Assembly: GCF_988243305.1 (NCBI RefSeq)
Contig: NZ_OZ547136.1
Direction: 5' to 3' (one strand)
Length of the DNA stretch: 64,000 bases
Shown here: positions 1,786-38,001 of the stretch, piece by piece
Numbering within the stretch: the stretch's first letter is position 1
Layout of the letters: each line of letters begins with the position of its first letter
Program-made: the position numbers and the translations under genes
The notes under the pieces: model-generated
What the model was told of the DNA's origin: nothing
Database searches by the model: none
The model's input: the letters and a program-made list of their open reading frames with translations, nothing else

Positions 1786-2931
1786 TTATGATGAGAACTC
1801 CTGGCGAATTTGTTCCCCATGTTGGTCGAGCGTTGCCGCTCCCGGCATAACATGCGGGTCCGCGCAGCCGCTGATTTTTATCGGATTACCTGGCATCATT
1901 ATTCCCCCGGCTTCAATCAACATATTTCTCGCCTGAGTTTGTGGCAAATTAATGGCCTCAGCCACACTTAATAACGGCGCGACGGGCACACCAACTTCAT
2001 GTATTTTGGCTAACCAAACTTCAGCTGCCTGCGTTTTTAACGTTCGCTCAATATATTGTTTAAGAATAGCCTGGTTTTGTACGCGTAAAATATTGCTGCT
2101 AAATCGGGGATCATTAACCAGTTCCGTAAGCTCCAGTGCCTGGCATAACGCAGAAAAAAGCTTGTCATTACCACAACAAATAGTAATCGGCTTATCCTGA
2201 GTATCAAAAACATCAAAAGGTGCCATGTAGGGATGGCGATTTCCCAGGCGTTGTGGTGACTTCCCTGTCGCAATATATGCCATCAGACCATGCTCCAGAA
2301 AACTCAGCGTGGCATCAAACATCGCTATATCGACATGCGCCCCTCTCTGGCTCTTTTCGCGGCCATAAAGTGCACTCACTATTCCGCTGAATAAATAGAC
2401 ACCGCCACATAAATCCGCAAGAGAGGTACCCACGCGCACTGGCGGAGCATCAGGGTACCCTGTTTCCATCATTATCCCGCTCATTGCCTGAATGATGGTA
2501 TCGTAGGCTGGAGCATCTTTTAGCGGGCCGGTATGCCCAAAACCTGACGATGAAGCATATATGAGACGCGGGTTGATTTCTTGTAGCGTTTCCCATGAAA
2601 ACCCCAGTTTTTCCATTGTACCTGGGCGAAAATTCTCAGCTAATACATCAGCTTGTTTAAGCATATTTATAAATATACTTTTATCGTGATCATTCTTTAA
2701 ATCAAGAACCACACTCTCTTTGCCATGATTAATAAAACTGTAATAGAGTGACTGTCCATCCACATAGGGACCAAATGTGCGGGTATCATCACCATGACCC
2801 GGCGGCTCAACTTTAATTACCCTTGCGCCCATATTACAAAGAAGTTGAGTTCCGAAAGGTCCATTAAGGACATGTGTCATATCGATAACTAATAAGCCTT
2901 CAAACGGCCCTTTGCATTCATTATTTGTCAT
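1786..2931 (-). CDS. yfdE: Acetyl-CoA:oxalate CoA-transferase, family III CoA-transferase
   Basis: ORF 1786-2970; translation matches family III CoA-transferases (CaiB/BaiF-like). I prefer the ATG at 2931 (MTNNECKGPF...) over the upstream GTG at 2970. Confidence 0.85.
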   Translation of the reverse strand: MTNNECKGPFEGLLVIDMTHVLNGPFGTQLLCNMGARVIKVEPPGHGDDTRTFGPYVDGQSLYYSFINHGKESVVLDLKNDHDKSIFINMLKQADVLAENFRPGTMEKLGFSWETLQEINPRLIYASSSGFGHTGPLKDAPAYDTIIQAMSGIMMETGYPDAPPVRVGTSLADLCGGVYLFSGIVSALYGREKSQRGAHVDIAMFDATLSFLEHGLMAYIATGKSPQRLGNRHPYMAPFDVFDTQDKPITICCGNDKLFSALCQALELTELVNDPRFSSNILRVQNQAILKQYIERTLKTQAAEVWLAKIHEVGVPVAPLLSVAEAINLPQTQARNMLIEAGGIMMPGNPIKISGCADPHVMPGAATLDQHGEQIRQEFSS

Positions 2932-2945
2932 TTGCTTATGCCTTG

Positions 2946-2976
2946 AAAAAAGCCGAAGGTGAAAAGACACTTCGGC
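2946..2976 (-). terminator. Stem-loop plus U-tract between yfdV stop and yfdE start (intra-operon terminator or attenuator candidate)
   Basis: On the minus strand, GCCGAAG-loop-CTTCGGC is followed by TTTTTT. It sits between the yfdV stop (3005) and the yfdE start (2931). Confidence 0.5.
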
Positions 2977-3004
2977 ATTTATGTAAAATCAATAACATGA
3001 TTAA

Positions 3005-3949
3005 TTATGAAACCAGTCGACTGACATAAATCCACAAAGGAGCCGTGACGACAAAGCCCAGTACGCTCACAGCCAATGATGCTGTACCAGTGCGGGTGTA
3101 GACATTAAACCGGCTGGCAATAATGATTCCGGAGAATGCCGGCGGTAAGGCGCCTGCCAGTACCATCATCTGCAAATGTTCGCTGTTCAAATGACATGCC
3201 ATACCCACGAGAAGCAGCGCCAGTGGCATCAGAATCAGCTTCAGGAAGGTGTTATAAGCAATTTCAGCACTGAACTCGAATTTATGTGCAGCCAGAGTCA
3301 ACCCCGCAGCGAATACCGCTACCCCTGAGTTAGCCTTCGCAATCAGATTAAAGGTTGGGTCCCATGCTGCCGGAATTTTTACCCCAACCAACACCAGGAT
3401 CGTTGCCAGAACAGGTGCCCATACTACTGGCTCCTTTGCCGCAGAAATTAATGCGCTCAGATTACTATTCTTCTTACCATCTGCTCCTGAGGAAGGATTC
3501 AGCAAATACAGACCAATAGGAATAGTAATTGCGTTAACAATAATAGAAATAATTGCTACAACTAAACCTGTTGATACGGAATCACCATAAATAGGATCGA
3601 GAACTGCAAATCCCAGGAATCCGATGGTAGGTGAACCTGCAATTAATGCACATACTGCTGCTTCTGCATGAGTACGTTTAAAAAATTTGTAGCAACCAAA
3701 CCAGGAGAAAAAGAAACATCCGACAATAACCACAAGTGATACAAGGGTCAGGCGAGTGTCCGCAAAAATCATTTCCCTGTTTGCCCGGGTAATAGAAACA
3801 AATAGGGCCGCAGGAAGAGCGTAGTTTAATACCAGTTTATTAAATGCCCGGGCTTGATCTTCTGAAAAAGTTTCTCGTCTGCCGCTAAAATAACCCAACA
3901 GCATGATTACGATAATAGGCAATAAATCGCCAATAAAAAATGTTAGCAT
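3005..3949 (-). CDS. yfdV: AEC-family (auxin efflux carrier-like) membrane transporter, putative oxalate/formate-linked
   Basis: 314 aa polytopic hydrophobic ORF; sits in an operon between oxc and yfdE. Confidence 0.85.
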
Positions 3950-4017
3950 AATAGTATTTCCGATAAGGGTCCCCTCACCATCGATAATGAGTTGGCAAGA
4001 GGAGACGATGTCAGTAT

Positions 4018-5712
4018 TTAATTACCAGCGACTTGTTTTGGGTTAAGTTTGGTAATATGGCCACTTTCAGTTCCTGCTGCAGGGTCGATGACCACATTAA
4101 TAATGGTCGGTTTGCGCGACTGAATACCGGTGGTTAAAGCATGACGAAGTTCATCTGTCGTAGTGACGTTATAGCCAACGCCACGAAACGCATCCATTAA
4201 TTTGTCATACCTTGCATGGTGCAATAGATCTGTTGGTGATGGTGCACCAGCGCCACTGAGATCAACACCGTCTCCTCTGTAGATGCCGCCATTATTAAAA
4301 ATAACGATCGTCACCGGCAGGTTATATCGACAAATCGTTTCAATCTCCATCCCACTGAAACCAAAAGCACTATCACCTTCAATGGCGACAACCGGAGAAC
4401 CAGAGGTCACGCTAGCACCGATGGCATAGCCCATACCGATGCCCATGACACCCCAGGTACCACAATCCAGACGGCGACGTGGTTTATACATATCAATAAT
4501 ATTTCGTGCATTATCCAGGGTATTTGCACCTTCATTAACTAAATAAATATCCTGGTTCTCGCGCAATACATCGCGCACAGCACTTAATGCATTAAAGTAA
4601 TTTAATGGTTGAGTATCTGTACTTAATTTTTCATGCATTTTTTGTGCATTTTGCTGCTTGTGGATATTTAAAATATCGCGCCATACCAGTGGAGTCGTAA
4701 ATGTGTTTTGTTTCAGTTCTGCCAGCATACCTTGCATACTGGATGCAATATCGCCAACGACTGGCACAGCAATGGGGCGGTTGCTGTCAATTTCCTGCGG
4801 TTCAATATCCAGTTGAATAAACTGTGTATCTGCCGCCCATCCTTTTTTACCGTGTGCCAGTAACCAATTCAGTCGTGCACCAACAAGCATGACAACGTCA
4901 GCATTTGCCAGGGCAAACGAACGCGCAGTTGCCGCAGAAAGTGGATGTGTATCTTCGAGGATCCCTTTCGCCATAGACATTGGCAGGAATGGAATCTGGG
5001 CACTTTCAATAAATTCACGAAGCTGTTCATCCGCTTGTGAATACGCCGCGCCTTTGCCAAGGATAACTAATGGTCGTTCAGCTTTTGCTAAAAGCGAAAT
5101 TGCGCTAGTGACTGACTTCGGGCATGGCAATAATGCTGGCGACGGATTTTCAACTTTTACAATCGTGGTTAACGCTTCGTCTTTTTCCATCGTCGCGGCC
5201 AGGACATTTGCTGGTAAATCAAGATAAACTCCGCCAGGGCGACCCGATACTGAGACCCGGATAGCGCGTGCCAATGCAATGCCAAGATCCTGCGGCTGAT
5301 TAACGCGAAATGCTGCTTTGGCATACGGTTTTGCCGCATTCATTTGGTCCAGCTCTTCATAATCACCTTGCTGTAGGTCGACGATCGCGCGGTCGCTGGA
5401 GCCGCTAATCATGATCATCGGAAAACCATTTACCGTTGCGTTGGCCAATGCGGTCAAACCATTGAGGAATCCTGGCGCAGACACTGTCAGGCAGATCCCT
5501 GGTTTTTGGGTAAGAAAACCGCTTGCCGCAGCGGCATAGCCTGCCGACTGCTCATGACGAAAACCAATATAACGAATGCCTTCCGCCTGGGCATGGCGTG
5601 CCATATCCGTCACAGGAATACCTACAACACCATAAATAGTGTCAATATTATTCTGTTTTAATGCTTCAACGATGATATGCATACCATCTGTCATTTGAAG
5701 TTGATCTGACAT
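4018..5712 (-). CDS. oxc: Oxalyl-CoA decarboxylase (thiamine-diphosphate dependent)
   Basis: 564 aa ORF with ThDP-enzyme architecture including a [14 protein letters not shown]-type ThDP-binding motif. Confidence 0.9.
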
Positions 5713-5765
5713 GATTAATAACCTCGAAATTTTTATAAATTGGGAGCCAGAAGCCCCCGTTAATA

Positions 5766-7016
5766 TCAGATGGCGTGGTTTTGCTTCATTGCAGCAATTT
5801 CATCGTCGCTATAACCCAGCTCCTGCAATACCACAGCGGTATGTTCACCTAATAGCGGCGCAGCTTTAATATCCGGCGTAAAGGCAGAGAATTTCATTGG
5901 ACAACCAACTGTCAGATATTTTCCACGCAACGGTTGTTCCACTTCAACAACACTGCCACTTTGGCGCAAAGAGGGATCAAGTGAAATTTCTTTCATACTT
6001 AAAACCGGTGCACAAGGAATATCAAACTGAGTCAAATAGGCCACTGCTTCATGTTTATCAATAGTGACAGTGTATTTTTCGATTTCAGCAAAAATATCGA
6101 AAATATGTGGCTGTCGGGCATGGGCTGTACTGTATGCCGGATCGGTAATCCAATCTGGTTTGCCGATGGCTTTACAGGTGTTTTCCCAGTTTTGCTCCTG
6201 AATAGTGAAATAAATATAGGCATTAGGATCGGTTTCCCAGCCTTTACATTTCAGGATCCAGCCAGGCTGACCGCCACCACCCGCATTACCACCGCGGGGA
6301 ACTGCATCACCAAATGTGCCATTCGGATACTGCGGGTATTCTTCCAGATAACCCAATTTATCGAGACGCTGCTGGTCGCGTAATTTCACGCGGCAAAGGT
6401 TCAATACGGCATCCTGCATTGACATGGTGACTCGTTGCCCACGCCCCGTTTTTTCGCGATGCAGCAAAGCAGCAAGTAAACCGATCAGTAAATGCATTCC
6501 GGTGTTGCTGTCACCCAACGCTGCAGCGCTTACCAGCGGCGGACCGTCCCAAAACCCCGTAGTGGATGCCGCGCCACCCGCTGCCTGAGCAACGTTTTCA
6601 TAGGCTTTTACATTCACATAAGGCGAACACTCATCAAACCCTTTGATCGAACCAAAAATCAGACGTGGATTGATTTCTTGAATATGCTCCCAGGTGAAGC
6701 CCATGTGATCAATGGCCCCTGGATGAAAGTTCTCGACTAAGATATCAGCTTCGCGGATCAGCTTTTCCATTACCTCTTTGCCTTCCGCTGTTTTGGTATT
6801 TAATTCAATAGAACGTTTGTTACTGTTAAGCATGGTGAAGTAAAGCGCATCGATATCAGGAATATCTCGCAGCTGGTGACGCGTTACGTCACCAACGCCG
6901 GGACGTTCAATTTTAATGACGTCAGCGCCAAACCAGGCCAGCATTTGAGTACAAGATGGGCCAGATTGCACACCGGTGAAATCGAGAACTTTAATTCCTT
7001 GAAGTGGAGTTGACAT
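5766..7016 (-). CDS. frc: Formyl-CoA:oxalate CoA-transferase
   Basis: 416 aa family III CoA-transferase immediately upstream of oxc in the same orientation. Confidence 0.9.
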
Positions 7017-34051: not shown

Positions 34052-34127
34052 GGGTGATTAGCTCAGCTGGGAGAGCACCTCCCTTACAAGGAGGGGGTCG
34101 GCGGTTCGATCCCGTCATCACCCACCA
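34052..34127 (+). tRNA. valU: tRNA-Val (anticodon UAC)
   Basis: GGGTGATTAGCTCAGCTGGGAGAGCACCTCCCTTACAAGGAGGGGGTCGGCGGTTCGATCCCGTCATCACCCACCA (76 nt). Confidence 0.95.
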
Positions 34128-34171
34128 ACTACTTTATGTAGTCTCCGCCGTGTAGCAAGAAATTGAGAAGT

Positions 34172-34247
34172 GGGTGATTAGCTCAGCTGGGAGAGCACCT
34201 CCCTTACAAGGAGGGGGTCGGCGGTTCGATCCCGTCATCACCCACCA
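34172..34247 (+). tRNA. valX: tRNA-Val (anticodon UAC)
   Basis: Identical 76 nt sequence, second copy. Confidence 0.95.
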
Positions 34248-34293
34248 CTTTCTCGCCAGCTAAATTTCTTGTAAAAATGTGAAGTACCGAAGT

Positions 34294-34369
34294 GGGTGAT
34301 TAGCTCAGCTGGGAGAGCACCTCCCTTACAAGGAGGGGGTCGGCGGTTCGATCCCGTCATCACCCACCA
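34294..34369 (+). tRNA. valY: tRNA-Val (anticodon UAC)
   Basis: Identical 76 nt sequence, third copy. Confidence 0.95.
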
Positions 34370-34373
34370 CTTC

Positions 34374-34449
34374 GGGTCGTTAGCTCAGTTGGTAGAGCAG
34401 TTGACTTTTAATCAATTGGTCGCAGGTTCGAATCCTGCACGACCCACCA
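34374..34449 (+). tRNA. lysV: tRNA-Lys (anticodon UUU)
   Basis: GGGTCGTTAGCTCAGTTGGTAGAGCAGTTGACTTTTAATCAATTGGTCGCAGGTTCGAATCCTGCACGACCCACCA (76 nt). Confidence 0.95.
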
Positions 34450-34715: not shown

Positions 34716-35600
34716 CTACTGCGCCAACGCCGCCAGCAGTTTAACCATCGCGGGCGTCACCTGCTGTGTTTCATAAACAATATATAAATCTGCAGGGATG
34801 CGCTGTTTGAGCGGACGGAAAATGACACCTGGCCAGTTCATTTGTGCGTAGCTGTCCGCTATCAATGTGATACCAATGCCCATACTGACCATAGCGAGTA
34901 CCGTTTGCGGTTCATTAACTTCGCGAATAACAACCGGTGAAAATCCCACCTGCTGGCAAACTCGCTGCAAAAAATCCCAGTCAGTGTAAACGGGCGGCAT
35001 TGTAACGAAATACTCGTCACCTAGCGCTTCCAGCGGGACGGTGGAAAATGATGAGAGATGATGCTCTTCAGGCATCGCCACCAGAAACGCCGATTCATGC
35101 AACCGTAAGCTGGTAAAACCTGCCGGTGGTTCTGTCGCCATTCTCCAGATTCCGGCATCGAGTTCACGTCGTTCCAGCAGGGCCATTTGCATCGCGGGCA
35201 TCTTTTCGCGAAAAAGAACGTCAACGTTAGGATTTTCCCTGAGGAATCGCCGCATAACCGGGCGCATCCGTCCCCACATTGCCGTTCCCACAACCCCGAG
35301 TTCAATCCGCCCTGCTTCTCCCCGACCTATTTGTTCAACCCGAGCCAATACATTATTTGCATTCACCAGCAATCGACGCGATTCTTCCATCAAGATTTTG
35401 CCCGCATGTGTCAGTACGACGCTGCGCGAATGGCGAATAAAAAGCTGCGTGCCGAGTTGATTTTCCAGCTCTTTAATATGAATACTGAGCGGAGGCTGAG
35501 ACATATTTAAACGCGCTGCTGCGCGACCAAAATGCAACTCTTCCGCTACGGCAAGAAAATAACGGAGCAACTTAAGATCTGTTCTATATACGCGTTCCAT
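34716..35600 (-). CDS. xapR: LysR-family regulator of the xanthosine operon
   Basis: ORF 34716-35615; I prefer the ATG at 35600 (MERVYRTDLKLLRYF...). N-terminal LysR HTH. Confidence 0.85.
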   Translation of the reverse strand: MERVYRTDLKLLRYFLAVAEELHFGRAAARLNMSQPPLSIHIKELENQLGTQLFIRHSRSVVLTHAGKILMEESRRLLVNANNVLARVEQIGRGEAGRIELGVVGTAMWGRMRPVMRRFLRENPNVDVLFREKMPAMQMALLERRELDAGIWRMATEPPAGFTSLRLHESAFLVAMPEEHHLSSFSTVPLEALGDEYFVTMPPVYTDWDFLQRVCQQVGFSPVVIREVNEPQTVLAMVSMGIGITLIADSYAQMNWPGVIFRPLKQRIPADLYIVYETQQVTPAMVKLLAALAQ

Positions 35601-35851
35601 AATTAAGTGCTCCATATAATAAATACATCGTATTAAATTATCATGGCATAAAGTATTTCACCACCAGATATCCGACATACATAAACACGATGGATAATAT
35701 ACCCGGCAATACATTTGGAACAGGAATAGGTAATCGCACGATTGTAAACAAAGCACCAATGCCAAAACCAACGCCAGAAGAAAATAAAATATCTTTCACT
35801 AATTAACCTTTATCATAAAAGCAGCCCCAAGGAACAGAGCTGCGAATCCTT

Positions 35852-37108
35852 TTAATGTGTAACTGAACGATGCGTTATCTTTTCAGGGTCATGGTTATAT
35901 TTAAACCCAAAGAAAAATATCACTGCGAGGAAAAGAGCATACCCTGCAAACATCAGCCAAATGGTATGCCAGTCTTTTACGCCATCCACCGAAAAGTAAT
36001 CTACTGCCATGCCACTCAGAATCGAGCCAACCCATGCGCCGACACCATTTACCATGGTCATAAAGAGCCCCTGCGCGCTGGCACGAATGCTGGAATCAAC
36101 TTCCTGTTCGACAAATACCGAACCAGAAATATTGAAGAAATCGAATGCACAGCCATAAACAATCATCGACAGCAGCAGCAAAATAAATCCGGTTGTTGAC
36201 GGATCGCCATAGGCGAAGAAGCCAAAGCGCAGCGTCCACGCCACCATACTCATCAGCATGACGGTTTTAATACCGAAACGCTTCAAAAAGAACGGTATCG
36301 TCAGAATGAAACCGACTTCAGCCATCTGTGAAACTGACAGTAAAATGGACGGGTATTTCACCACGAAGCTATCAGCAAACTCAGGATTACGGGCGAAATC
36401 ATGCAGGAACGGGTTGCCAAAAACGTTGGTAATTTGCAGCACCGCGCCCAGCATCATGGCGAAGAGGAAAAAGATAGCCATGCGTGGATTTTTAAACAGC
36501 ACGAAGGCATCCAGACCCAGCTTGCTGGCAAGCGATGTAGTCGCTTTTTTCTCCGCAACCGGAATCTTCGGCAAAGTCAGCGCATAAGCCGACAGCAGCA
36601 ATGACGCACCGGACGCGATATACAGCTGCAGACTACTCAATTCCAGATGCAGCAGGCTTACTGCCCACATGGCGACAATGAACCCCACCGTACCAAAAAC
36701 GCGAATGGGCGGGAAAGCGGTCACCGGGTCAAGCCCTGCCTGGGCAAGACAGGAATAAGAGACGCTGTTCGATAACGCAATAGTCGGCATAAACGCCATC
36801 GCATTGACTAACATCACCCAAAACATCATATCCGGATCAGTTACGGATGCCGCATAAAAAAGTACGCCTGCACACACCAGGTGACACAGCATGTATGCAC
36901 GTTCTGCACGCAGCCATTTGTCTGCGATGATCCCCATTATACCAGGCATAATAATCGCGGCGATCCCTTTGGAACTGTAAACCATGCCAACATTAGCGCC
37001 GGTGAAATGAAGGGTATTAATCATGTAAGAACCGAGGGTAACCAGCCAGCTCCCCCAGATAAAATATTGCAAAAAGGACATTACCTTTAAGCGCAAAGCG
37101 ATGCTCAT
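35852..37108 (-). CDS. xapB: Xanthosine:H+ symporter (MFS, nucleoside:H+ symporter family)
   Basis: 418 aa ORF with 12 predicted TM segments, NupG-like. Confidence 0.9.
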   Translation of the reverse strand: MSIALRLKVMSFLQYFIWGSWLVTLGSYMINTLHFTGANVGMVYSSKGIAAIIMPGIMGIIADKWLRAERAYMLCHLVCAGVLFYAASVTDPDMMFWVMLVNAMAFMPTIALSNSVSYSCLAQAGLDPVTAFPPIRVFGTVGFIVAMWAVSLLHLELSSLQLYIASGASLLLSAYALTLPKIPVAEKKATTSLASKLGLDAFVLFKNPRMAIFFLFAMMLGAVLQITNVFGNPFLHDFARNPEFADSFVVKYPSILLSVSQMAEVGFILTIPFFLKRFGIKTVMLMSMVAWTLRFGFFAYGDPSTTGFILLLLSMIVYGCAFDFFNISGSVFVEQEVDSSIRASAQGLFMTMVNGVGAWVGSILSGMAVDYFSVDGVKDWHTIWLMFAGYALFLAVIFFFGFKYNHDPEKITHRSVTH

Positions 37109-37167: not shown

Positions 37168-38001
37168 TCAGGCAATTTTGCGCAGAAAGCCACAAATAAG
37201 GTTGATGAAGTTCTGCTTAGAGAGCTCCGCAGCCGCCAGCGTTTGCGCATGTGACAATTTCACATCGCTTAAACCTTCCGCCATGTTGGTAATCGCAGAG
37301 ACCGCAACGACTTTAAGTTCGCAATGGCGAGCAGAAATAACCTCAGGCACCACAGACATACCAACAACATCCCCACCAATAATTTGCATCATGCGAATTT
37401 CCGCCGCAGTCTCGAAATTCGGACCCGGATACGAGACGAACACGCCCTCCGTCAGAGGGAACCCCTCTTCTTTCGCCACTTTTTGTAACAGTGCGCGGTA
37501 TTCCGCATCGTAGGCATTCGCCAGCGAGAAGAAGCGCTCACCAAAACGTTCATCATTAAGACCCACCATCGGCGTTCCCGGCATGGTGTTGATGTGATCT
37601 TTCAATGCGACCAGACTGCCGGCCCCCACTTCAGGACGCAGTGAGCCAGCCGCATTGGTGCAGAACAGCAACTCGCAGCCCAGCAACTTAAAGGTACGGA
37701 TTGCATCCATCATGATGGTCATCCCACGACCTTCGTAGAAATGTCCGCGACCTTTCATGCACGCCACTGGCACCCCCTGAAGATAACCCAGCACCAGCTC
37801 ACCCGCATGACCGTGTACGGTACTTACCGGGAACCCAGGCAGCTTTTCGTAGGAAATTGCGACCGCGTTCTCAATCTGATCGGCCAGCGCGCCCAGCCCG
37901 GAACCTAAAATAAAGGCCACTCGTGGCGTGAAATCAGGTTTATAAGTCTTGATAATATCTACGCAATACAGTGGGTTATGAGAAAACTGAGCCTGATACA
38001 T
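37168..38001 (-). CDS. xapA: Purine nucleoside phosphorylase II (xanthosine phosphorylase)
   Basis: 277 aa ORF of the PNP/MTAP family I. Confidence 0.9.
   Translation of the reverse strand: MYQAQFSHNPLYCVDIIKTYKPDFTPRVAFILGSGLGALADQIENAVAISYEKLPGFPVSTVHGHAGELVLGYLQGVPVACMKGRGHFYEGRGMTIMMDAIRTFKLLGCELLFCTNAAGSLRPEVGAGSLVALKDHINTMPGTPMVGLNDERFGERFFSLANAYDAEYRALLQKVAKEEGFPLTEGVFVSYPGPNFETAAEIRMMQIIGGDVVGMSVVPEVISARHCELKVVAVSAITNMAEGLSDVKLSHAQTLAAAELSKQNFINLICGFLRKIA

Follow-up and report, generated by a model that had tools for sequence, protein, structure and literature searches.

Several small membrane proteins of E. coli modulate transporters, as in the pairs AcrZ-AcrB, KdpF-KdpABC, MgtS-MgtA and SgrT-PtsG. 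XapX, the peptide considered here, is encoded in the xap locus and shares with these proteins a length of about 50 residues or fewer, a hydrophobic sequence, a gene that lies beside or is co-regulated with that of a transporter and, according to our proposal, dispensability for basic activity. AcrZ, KdpF, MgtS and SgrT are either soluble or made of one transmembrane helix, and experiments have demonstrated their binding, whereas XapX is a predicted two-helix hairpin with a conserved proline loop. The XapX family, unlike proteins of the AcrZ type, is also found away from transporters. We use the AcrZ-type proteins as a working analogy for the mechanism of XapX.

A second set of comparable sequences are the ORFs described in "The Cryptic Bacterial Microproteome" (PMC11188072), which, like xapX, are short, hydrophobic and intergenic, bear signs of purifying selection and possibly interact with the product of a neighbouring gene. 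Neither xap nor DUF1427 occurs in the main text of that study, and XapX differs from those ORFs in that a curated family and a RefSeq entry exist for it. It is thus known to databases, and "cryptic" only in K-12.

The curated family is NCBIfam TIGR03510 ("XapX domain"). Judging from the family name and its TIGRFAMs description, we take the position for which it was named to be that between xapB and xapR, and the E. coli protein is evidently the namesake. Compared with the members of TIGR03510 and of Pfam family PF07235 (DUF1427), XapX shows no difference in kind, having about 50 residues, a hydrophobic sequence and the same loop motif. In a domain census from 2005, DUF1427 was thought to be restricted to plant-associated Proteobacteria (PMC554113), which is contradicted by the enterobacterial and Firmicute members found here. 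Our full-text literature search returned this census as the only paper with DUF1427, and no paper discussing XapX. The points added by the present analysis are modest: an apparently ancestral place of xapX in the xap cassette, its repeated loss, a deoC gene inserted after xapX in the Budviciaceae and a second nucleoside context.

The xapX reading frame and its family

The window, i.e. the whole stretch of 64,000 nucleotides (contig NZ_OZ547136.1) that was analysed, contains gltX, three tRNA-Val and one tRNA-Lys genes, xapR, xapB, xapA and yfeN in the order of the E. coli xap locus. Between xapB and xapR, the coding sequence of xapX occupies positions 35641-35799 of the minus strand and comprises 52 codons followed by TGA, with a GTG start codon at 35799 and the last base of the stop codon at 35641. 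The ORF listing returned the coordinates and the peptide given in the initial annotation, and the RefSeq CDS WP_000651752.1 has the same extent. In K-12 MG1655 the gene lies at 2522518-2522676, also on the minus strand. A Shine-Dalgarno-like AAAGG was read from the sequence at 35807-35811 (minus strand), 7 nt upstream of the GTG, and is probably the ribosome-binding site; the AAGG contained in it (35807-35810) had been noticed before and placed at a distance of about 8 nt. Such motifs precede every ortholog, in the form AAAGG or as GAAGGA (Citrobacter enshiensis), GGGGG (Enterobacter) or the strong AAAGGAGG of Chimaeribacter, while the start codon varies between GTG and ATG. Since a frame of 52 codons is unremarkable in an AT-rich spacer, the ORF by itself cannot demonstrate an excess over chance.

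Against TIGR03510, the XapX peptide scored 64.2 bits (E=5.8e-18, cutoff 27.8), with residues 4-50 of the peptide matching positions 2-48 of the 49-position profile. A Pfam scan of the E. coli peptide gave no match at E<=1, so the link to DUF1427 was made via its relatives and via the names assigned by PGAP: all 17 aligned relatives match TIGR03510, and ten of these 17 also match PF07235 (best E=4.3e-6). One distant member has a weak precomputed match to PF07235. An exhaustive profile search yielded 77 cluster representatives at E<=1e-3, mostly of 45-95 residues, and the motif common to the relatives is K/R-LP(I/V)PAP-x-(V/A)(L/A)(P/G)G, situated between two hydrophobic segments.

RefSeq/PGAP annotates WP_000651752.1 as "DUF1427 family protein" at the identical position of an ST131 genome, in which the ORF matches that of the window exactly. 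Of 5426 complete E. coli genomes, 4077 contain the region; among those listed, nearly all that have it, and all with an intact cassette, carry a "DUF1427 family protein" at this position. In the curated record of K-12 MG1655, the ORF is intact and no feature is placed there. The initial annotation had described the frame as unannotated, which applies to the K-12 MG1655 reference only, RefSeq entries of E. coli elsewhere carrying WP_000651752.1 under this name. The K-12 reference accordingly lacks a gene that is intact, under purifying selection and annotated in other E. coli, and anyone who engineers or models the xapAB-xapR switch, or deletes the "xapB-xapR intergenic region", also affects a conserved membrane protein.

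Evidence for coding comes from the substitution pattern. Window and K-12 MG1655 differ at seven sites within xapX, all of them synonymous third-position changes that leave the proteins identical; the probability of seven out of seven synonymous changes by chance is about 0.247^7 = 6e-5 (S=37.8, N=115.2 sites). Among seven taxa, dN/dS (Nei-Gojobori) ranged from 0.004 to 0.30 in those pairs where it was computable, with synonymous sites near saturation. The variable columns of the same seven taxa are distributed over the three codon positions as 19/12/45, and the remaining two frames of the region pick up stop codons in some taxa. Orthologs of exactly 52 codons were found in at least nine other genera. 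These include Salmonella serovars, Chimaeribacter, Citrobacter enshiensis, Enterobacter and Entomohabitans, to which a scan of species-representative genomes, biased toward close orthologs by its query (the close-ortholog alignment), added Pseudocitrobacter, Phytobacter, Citrobacter sp. On2M, Pragia and two Limnobaculum species. In the GC-rich Chimaeribacter, the protein is conserved although the DNA is saturated with changes.

The synonymous pattern, the codon periodicity, the retained 52 codons and the translation signals are together characteristic of a translated gene rather than of conserved regulatory DNA, and we regard it as almost certain that the ORF at 35641-35799 is a real gene of the XapX family. 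The initial annotation had left the choice between a real small membrane protein and a chance ORF in promoter DNA, and had pointed to synonymous substitutions and conservation as a means to separate the two. Conservation at the codon level was indeed found. The coding substitution pattern, the TIGR03510 membership and a predicted two-helix hairpin (see below) all speak for the protein, and the synonymous pattern and the retention of length, frame and sequence across genera led us to reject the chance ORF.

Structure and topology predictions

AlphaFold2, run with the family alignment, predicted two helices (residues 2-20 and 31-50) connected by a 10-residue loop, with a mean pLDDT of 74. This agrees with the earlier suggestion of a one- or two-pass membrane peptide, in its two-pass form, and we infer that XapX is likely to be a helical hairpin of the inner membrane. 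The first helix displays a GxGxGxG glycine face. Glycine-zipper-like patterns of this type are associated with oligomerisation. The loop consists of a basic residue followed by LPIPxPN-VLPG and is the most conserved element of the family. A sequence search of the PDB with the family profile gave no match, and hence no relative with a solved structure.

For the orientation in the membrane we considered the distribution of basic residues. Over 57 family members, the tails contain 3.1 K+R per protein compared with 0.75 in the loop, from which an N-in/C-in topology with a periplasmic proline loop appears probable. In the E. coli protein, basic residues are distributed 1/1/1, so the topology signal is ambiguous for this protein alone.

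Gene order, distribution and loss

In the window, all genes of the cassette are encoded on the minus strand. The first gene is xapA (37168-38001; ORF and RefSeq annotation), which encodes xanthosine phosphorylase. It is followed by xapB (35852-37108; ORF and RefSeq), coding for a xanthosine:H+ symporter of the NHS family of MFS transporters; it is the next gene upstream of xapX, with its stop codon at 35852-35854. The gene for the LysR-type activator, xapR (34716-35600, from the RefSeq annotation of the identical sequence), follows, with its ATG at 35600 and a start at MERVY that is conserved across orthologs. The order given in the initial annotation, with xapX ending upstream of xapR, was right; the 41 bp quoted there is a coordinate difference, the actual gap being 40 nt.

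The order xapA-xapB-xapX-xapR was found in the window and at least ten other taxa. In every orthologous locus xapX comes directly after xapB, and its distance to xapR varies between 39 and 119 nt. In Chimaeribacter the four-gene cassette is located between metG and AraC-type regulators and not between yfeN and gltX, from which we conclude that the four xap genes move together. Repeated horizontal transfer of xapR with xapA has been reported (PMC2395238), which fits a mobile cassette. In the Budviciaceae (Pragia, Limnobaculum), a gene for a DeoC-family aldolase is inserted between xapX and xapR, and xapX follows about 108 nt behind xapB; xapX is therefore not simply a leader of xapR, it stays with the structural genes. 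In Limnobaculum eriocheiris (positions 2637-5914 of the extracted locus), the xapX ORF is still alignable in what appears to be a decaying xap locus, with an internal stop codon in XapB and with XapR in two overlapping pieces, as if frameshifted.

Further relatives occur in other surroundings. A homolog with 47% identity, from a metagenome-assembled genome (MAG) of an uncultured member of the Enterobacterales, lies between a gene for a NupC-type concentrative nucleoside transporter (together with yjdM) and genes of the DeoB/DeoD type. Distant family members were seen next to an FMN reductase and an AraC regulator, on a phage-like contig and next to a formamidase; given these unrelated contexts, the family is not specific to nucleoside transport. 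Two loci from Thermoanaerobacter/Caldanaerobacter contain an ORF of the XapX family (at about 4001-4144) with 40% identity, flanked by a peptidase C26/CoA-disulfide-reductase-like pair and by genes for DJ-1/PfpI and an Old-Yellow-Enzyme-type (flavin) reductase. With this ORF in thermophilic Firmicutes, the family reaches well beyond the Proteobacteria.

XapB orthologs with 77-89% identity occur much more widely than XapX. The cassettes of Klebsiella huaxiensis, C. freundii and an Enterobacter consist of xapA-xapB-xapR, with xapX missing, and no XapX-like remnant was detected in their xapB-xapR spacers of 100, 97 and 67 nt, respectively. A comparison of Citrobacter sp. On2M, which has xapX, with C. 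freundii and Klebsiella, which do not, showed that they have the sequence to either side of the gene in common, so a clean indel of about 190 nt seems to account for the difference. In a neighbour-joining tree of XapB, the loci without xapX fall into two separate positions inside clades that otherwise carry it, and all deep branches have the gene. Read parsimoniously, the tree makes xapX the ancestral fourth gene of the cassette, lost at least twice independently. The presence/absence polymorphism offers a ready comparison, both between Citrobacter sp. On2M and C. freundii and between two lineages of Enterobacter.

Within E. coli, the xap cassette was detected in 4102 of the 5426 complete genomes, with no match in the other 1324 (about 24%); the xanthosine system is accessory within this species. 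Two E. coli loci are disrupted by insertion sequences: in FDAARGOS_944 (NZ_CP065613.1, positions 4145-4842 of the extracted locus) an IS1 replaces xapA, xapB and xapX, leaving xapR beside yfeN, and in NCTC9041 (NZ_LR134296.1) an IS30 interrupts the cassette. A 341-bp spacer region of the window is 100% identical to that of ST131, the whole 3.3-kb cassette being about 97.5% identical to ST131 and 99.8% identical to the bovine strain C4, a pattern that may point to mosaicism through recombination. The tRNA cluster between gltX and xapR (34052-34449) consists of three tRNA-Val(UAC) and one tRNA-Lys in the window and in K-12, compared with two tRNA-Val and one tRNA-Lys in the ST131 genome (1769-2046 of its locus).

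Expression signals and possible functions

Between the stop codon of xapB and the start of xapX, the minus strand contains a stem-loop followed by UUUU (35817-35843). The stem (35821-35843) has nine pairs and a 5-nt loop, the U-tract covers 35817-35820, and the minimum free energy amounts to -13.1 kcal/mol in the window and -15.2 kcal/mol in K-12. Window and K-12 differ at four positions of the stem, each time by a change from G-U to A-U or G-C that leaves the pair intact, a pattern suggestive of selection acting on the RNA structure. In Salmonella, Enterobacter, Citrobacter On2M, Klebsiella and Pragia, though not in Entomohabitans, xapB is likewise followed by a hairpin of this kind, which is retained even in taxa without xapX. 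As several of these hairpins have no U-tract, they may be attenuators or stabilisers rather than efficient terminators; the element in the window may likewise act as a weak terminator, an attenuator or an mRNA-stabilising element. An Rfam scan of the spacer returned only a sub-threshold chance match and no known RNA element.

Co-transcription of xapX after xapB, which the initial annotation had considered, is plausible from the gene order, though not guaranteed, as the hairpin and U-tract separate the two genes. The hairpin and the GTG lie too close together to accommodate a promoter, and we thus infer that xapX would be reached by read-through from the xanthosine-induced xapA promoter. The xapX ORF is not mentioned in the main texts of two E. 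coli start-site profiling studies or in the one supplement searched, which belongs to the second of them. The cells in those studies were presumably grown without xanthosine, and with an uninduced xap operon the absence would cause no surprise. Neither xapR or xapB nor any K-12 position of the form 25224xx-25227xx was found in the possibly partial supplements of the Cappable-seq, SMRT-Cappable-seq and Stringer et al. studies.

The promoter of xapR was not located in our sigma-70 scan of the spacer, which gave a single consensus match where 1.7 are expected from shuffled sequences. This match (-35 ATGATA, -10 TATTAT; 35616-35644, minus strand) overlaps the stop codon of xapX and is a weak candidate for the xapR promoter, whose role is doubtful since transcription from it is predicted to begin only at, or downstream of, the Shine-Dalgarno sequence of xapR. 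According to PMC7205307, which cites Seeger 1995 on this point, expression of xapR is constitutive and not subject to autoregulation. By gSELEX, a peak of RNA polymerase-sigma54 was mapped in vitro to the xapB/xapR spacer (K-12 2,520,564 in the coordinates of PMC8743547), and gSELEX with NtrC gave another peak of sigma54 RNA polymerase in xapA/xapB (PMC8743547). We searched positions 35600-35860 for a sigma54 promoter and rejected this possibility for the spacer, as no TGGCAC-N5-TTGCW-like site with two or fewer mismatches was present.

The explanation that we consider well supported overall is that xapX is a gene of the XapX family which encodes a predicted membrane hairpin and belongs to the xap cassette; the role proposed for it is an accessory one. 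According to our proposal, xapX would probably be translated from that part of the xapAB transcript, induced by xanthosine, which extends through the stem-loop behind xapB. The product would insert into the inner membrane as a hairpin, with both termini inside and the proline loop facing the periplasm, and would most plausibly pack against XapB through its glycine-rich first helix. XapX would then be a dispensable accessory protein or modulator of nucleoside uptake, neither an enzyme nor an obligate subunit.

Its assignment to nucleoside transport in particular is drawn by analogy and is tentative, its probability being low. It is favoured by the constant position of xapX after xapB and by the NupC-DeoB/DeoD context of the MAG homolog, while the three taxa that keep the cassette without xapX, and distant members that have no transporter as neighbour, count against it. 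In a more specific version, which we consider rather unlikely, XapX would be a microprotein dedicated to the regulation of nucleoside permeases: inserted beside XapB, or beside a NupC-type carrier in the case of the MAG relative, it would tune either uptake or the all-or-none induction switch of the xanthosine system. If this were true, lineages without xapX would have an xap system of different behaviour, and the widespread DUF1427/XapX family would have its first function.

XapX might instead be a small membrane module of a generic kind, whose role has nothing to do with xanthosine and which became part of the cassette by history; a peptide of membrane stress or homeostasis, a pore built from oligomers or a hitch-hiker would be examples. 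The heterogeneous contexts of the distant members, the repeated loss of xapX without loss of the cassette and the glycine-zipper-like helix face, which is compatible with self-association, are all consistent with such a module. A position after xapB that has remained stable under purifying selection across Enterobacteriaceae, Yersiniaceae and Budviciaceae, and the second, independent nucleoside context with NupC and DeoB/DeoD, are less easily reconciled with it, and we give this explanation only a small chance.

It appears very improbable that xapX acts in cis, i.e. that translation of this frame upstream of xapR serves to couple or tune the expression of xapR, with the peptide itself being unimportant. 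In E. coli, no more than 40 nt separate the end of the frame from xapR, and the frame sits after the terminator-like hairpin behind xapB, a placement that could group it with xapR. However, purifying selection acts on the amino-acid sequence and not just on the frame, and elsewhere the domain is found as a protein of its own, in unrelated contexts. Moreover, the distance to xapR is variable, deoC intervenes in Pragia and Limnobaculum, and xapR persists without xapX in Klebsiella, C. freundii and Enterobacter.

We also see hardly any prospect for XapX as a small subunit that the XapB permease could not do without for its folding or activity, in the manner of KdpF, which stabilises KdpABC. The gene, when present, is always immediately downstream of xapB, and the predicted hairpin with its glycine-rich face would be suited to helix packing. 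Co-retention with the transporter across lineages, as for a KdpF-like protein, was not observed: XapB proteins with 77-88% identity are kept together with xapA and xapR in three taxa without xapX, and the at least two independent losses implied by the XapB tree, in which xapB was retained, argue that XapX is not an obligate subunit.

The idea of a chance ORF in AT-rich regulatory DNA containing the xapR promoter, with its conservation due to regulatory constraint at the DNA level, can draw on the base composition of the spacer, the sigma-70-like match over the stop codon and the in vitro binding of RNA polymerase-sigma54 (PMC8743547), but may be dismissed almost outright in view of codon-periodic and overwhelmingly synonymous changes, a protein kept in Chimaeribacter, the match to a curated family, a promoter-like match not above chance and a spacer without sigma54 consensus.

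Minor observations in the spacer concern a 5-codon mini-ORF, ATGATAAAGGTTAATTAG, at 35799-35816 (minus strand), which we treated as probably due to chance, since Salmonella does not have it and it was not observed ahead of the other orthologs. It is present in both the window and K-12 (ATG ATA AAG GTT AAT TAG), and its TAG overlaps the GTG of xapX by one base.
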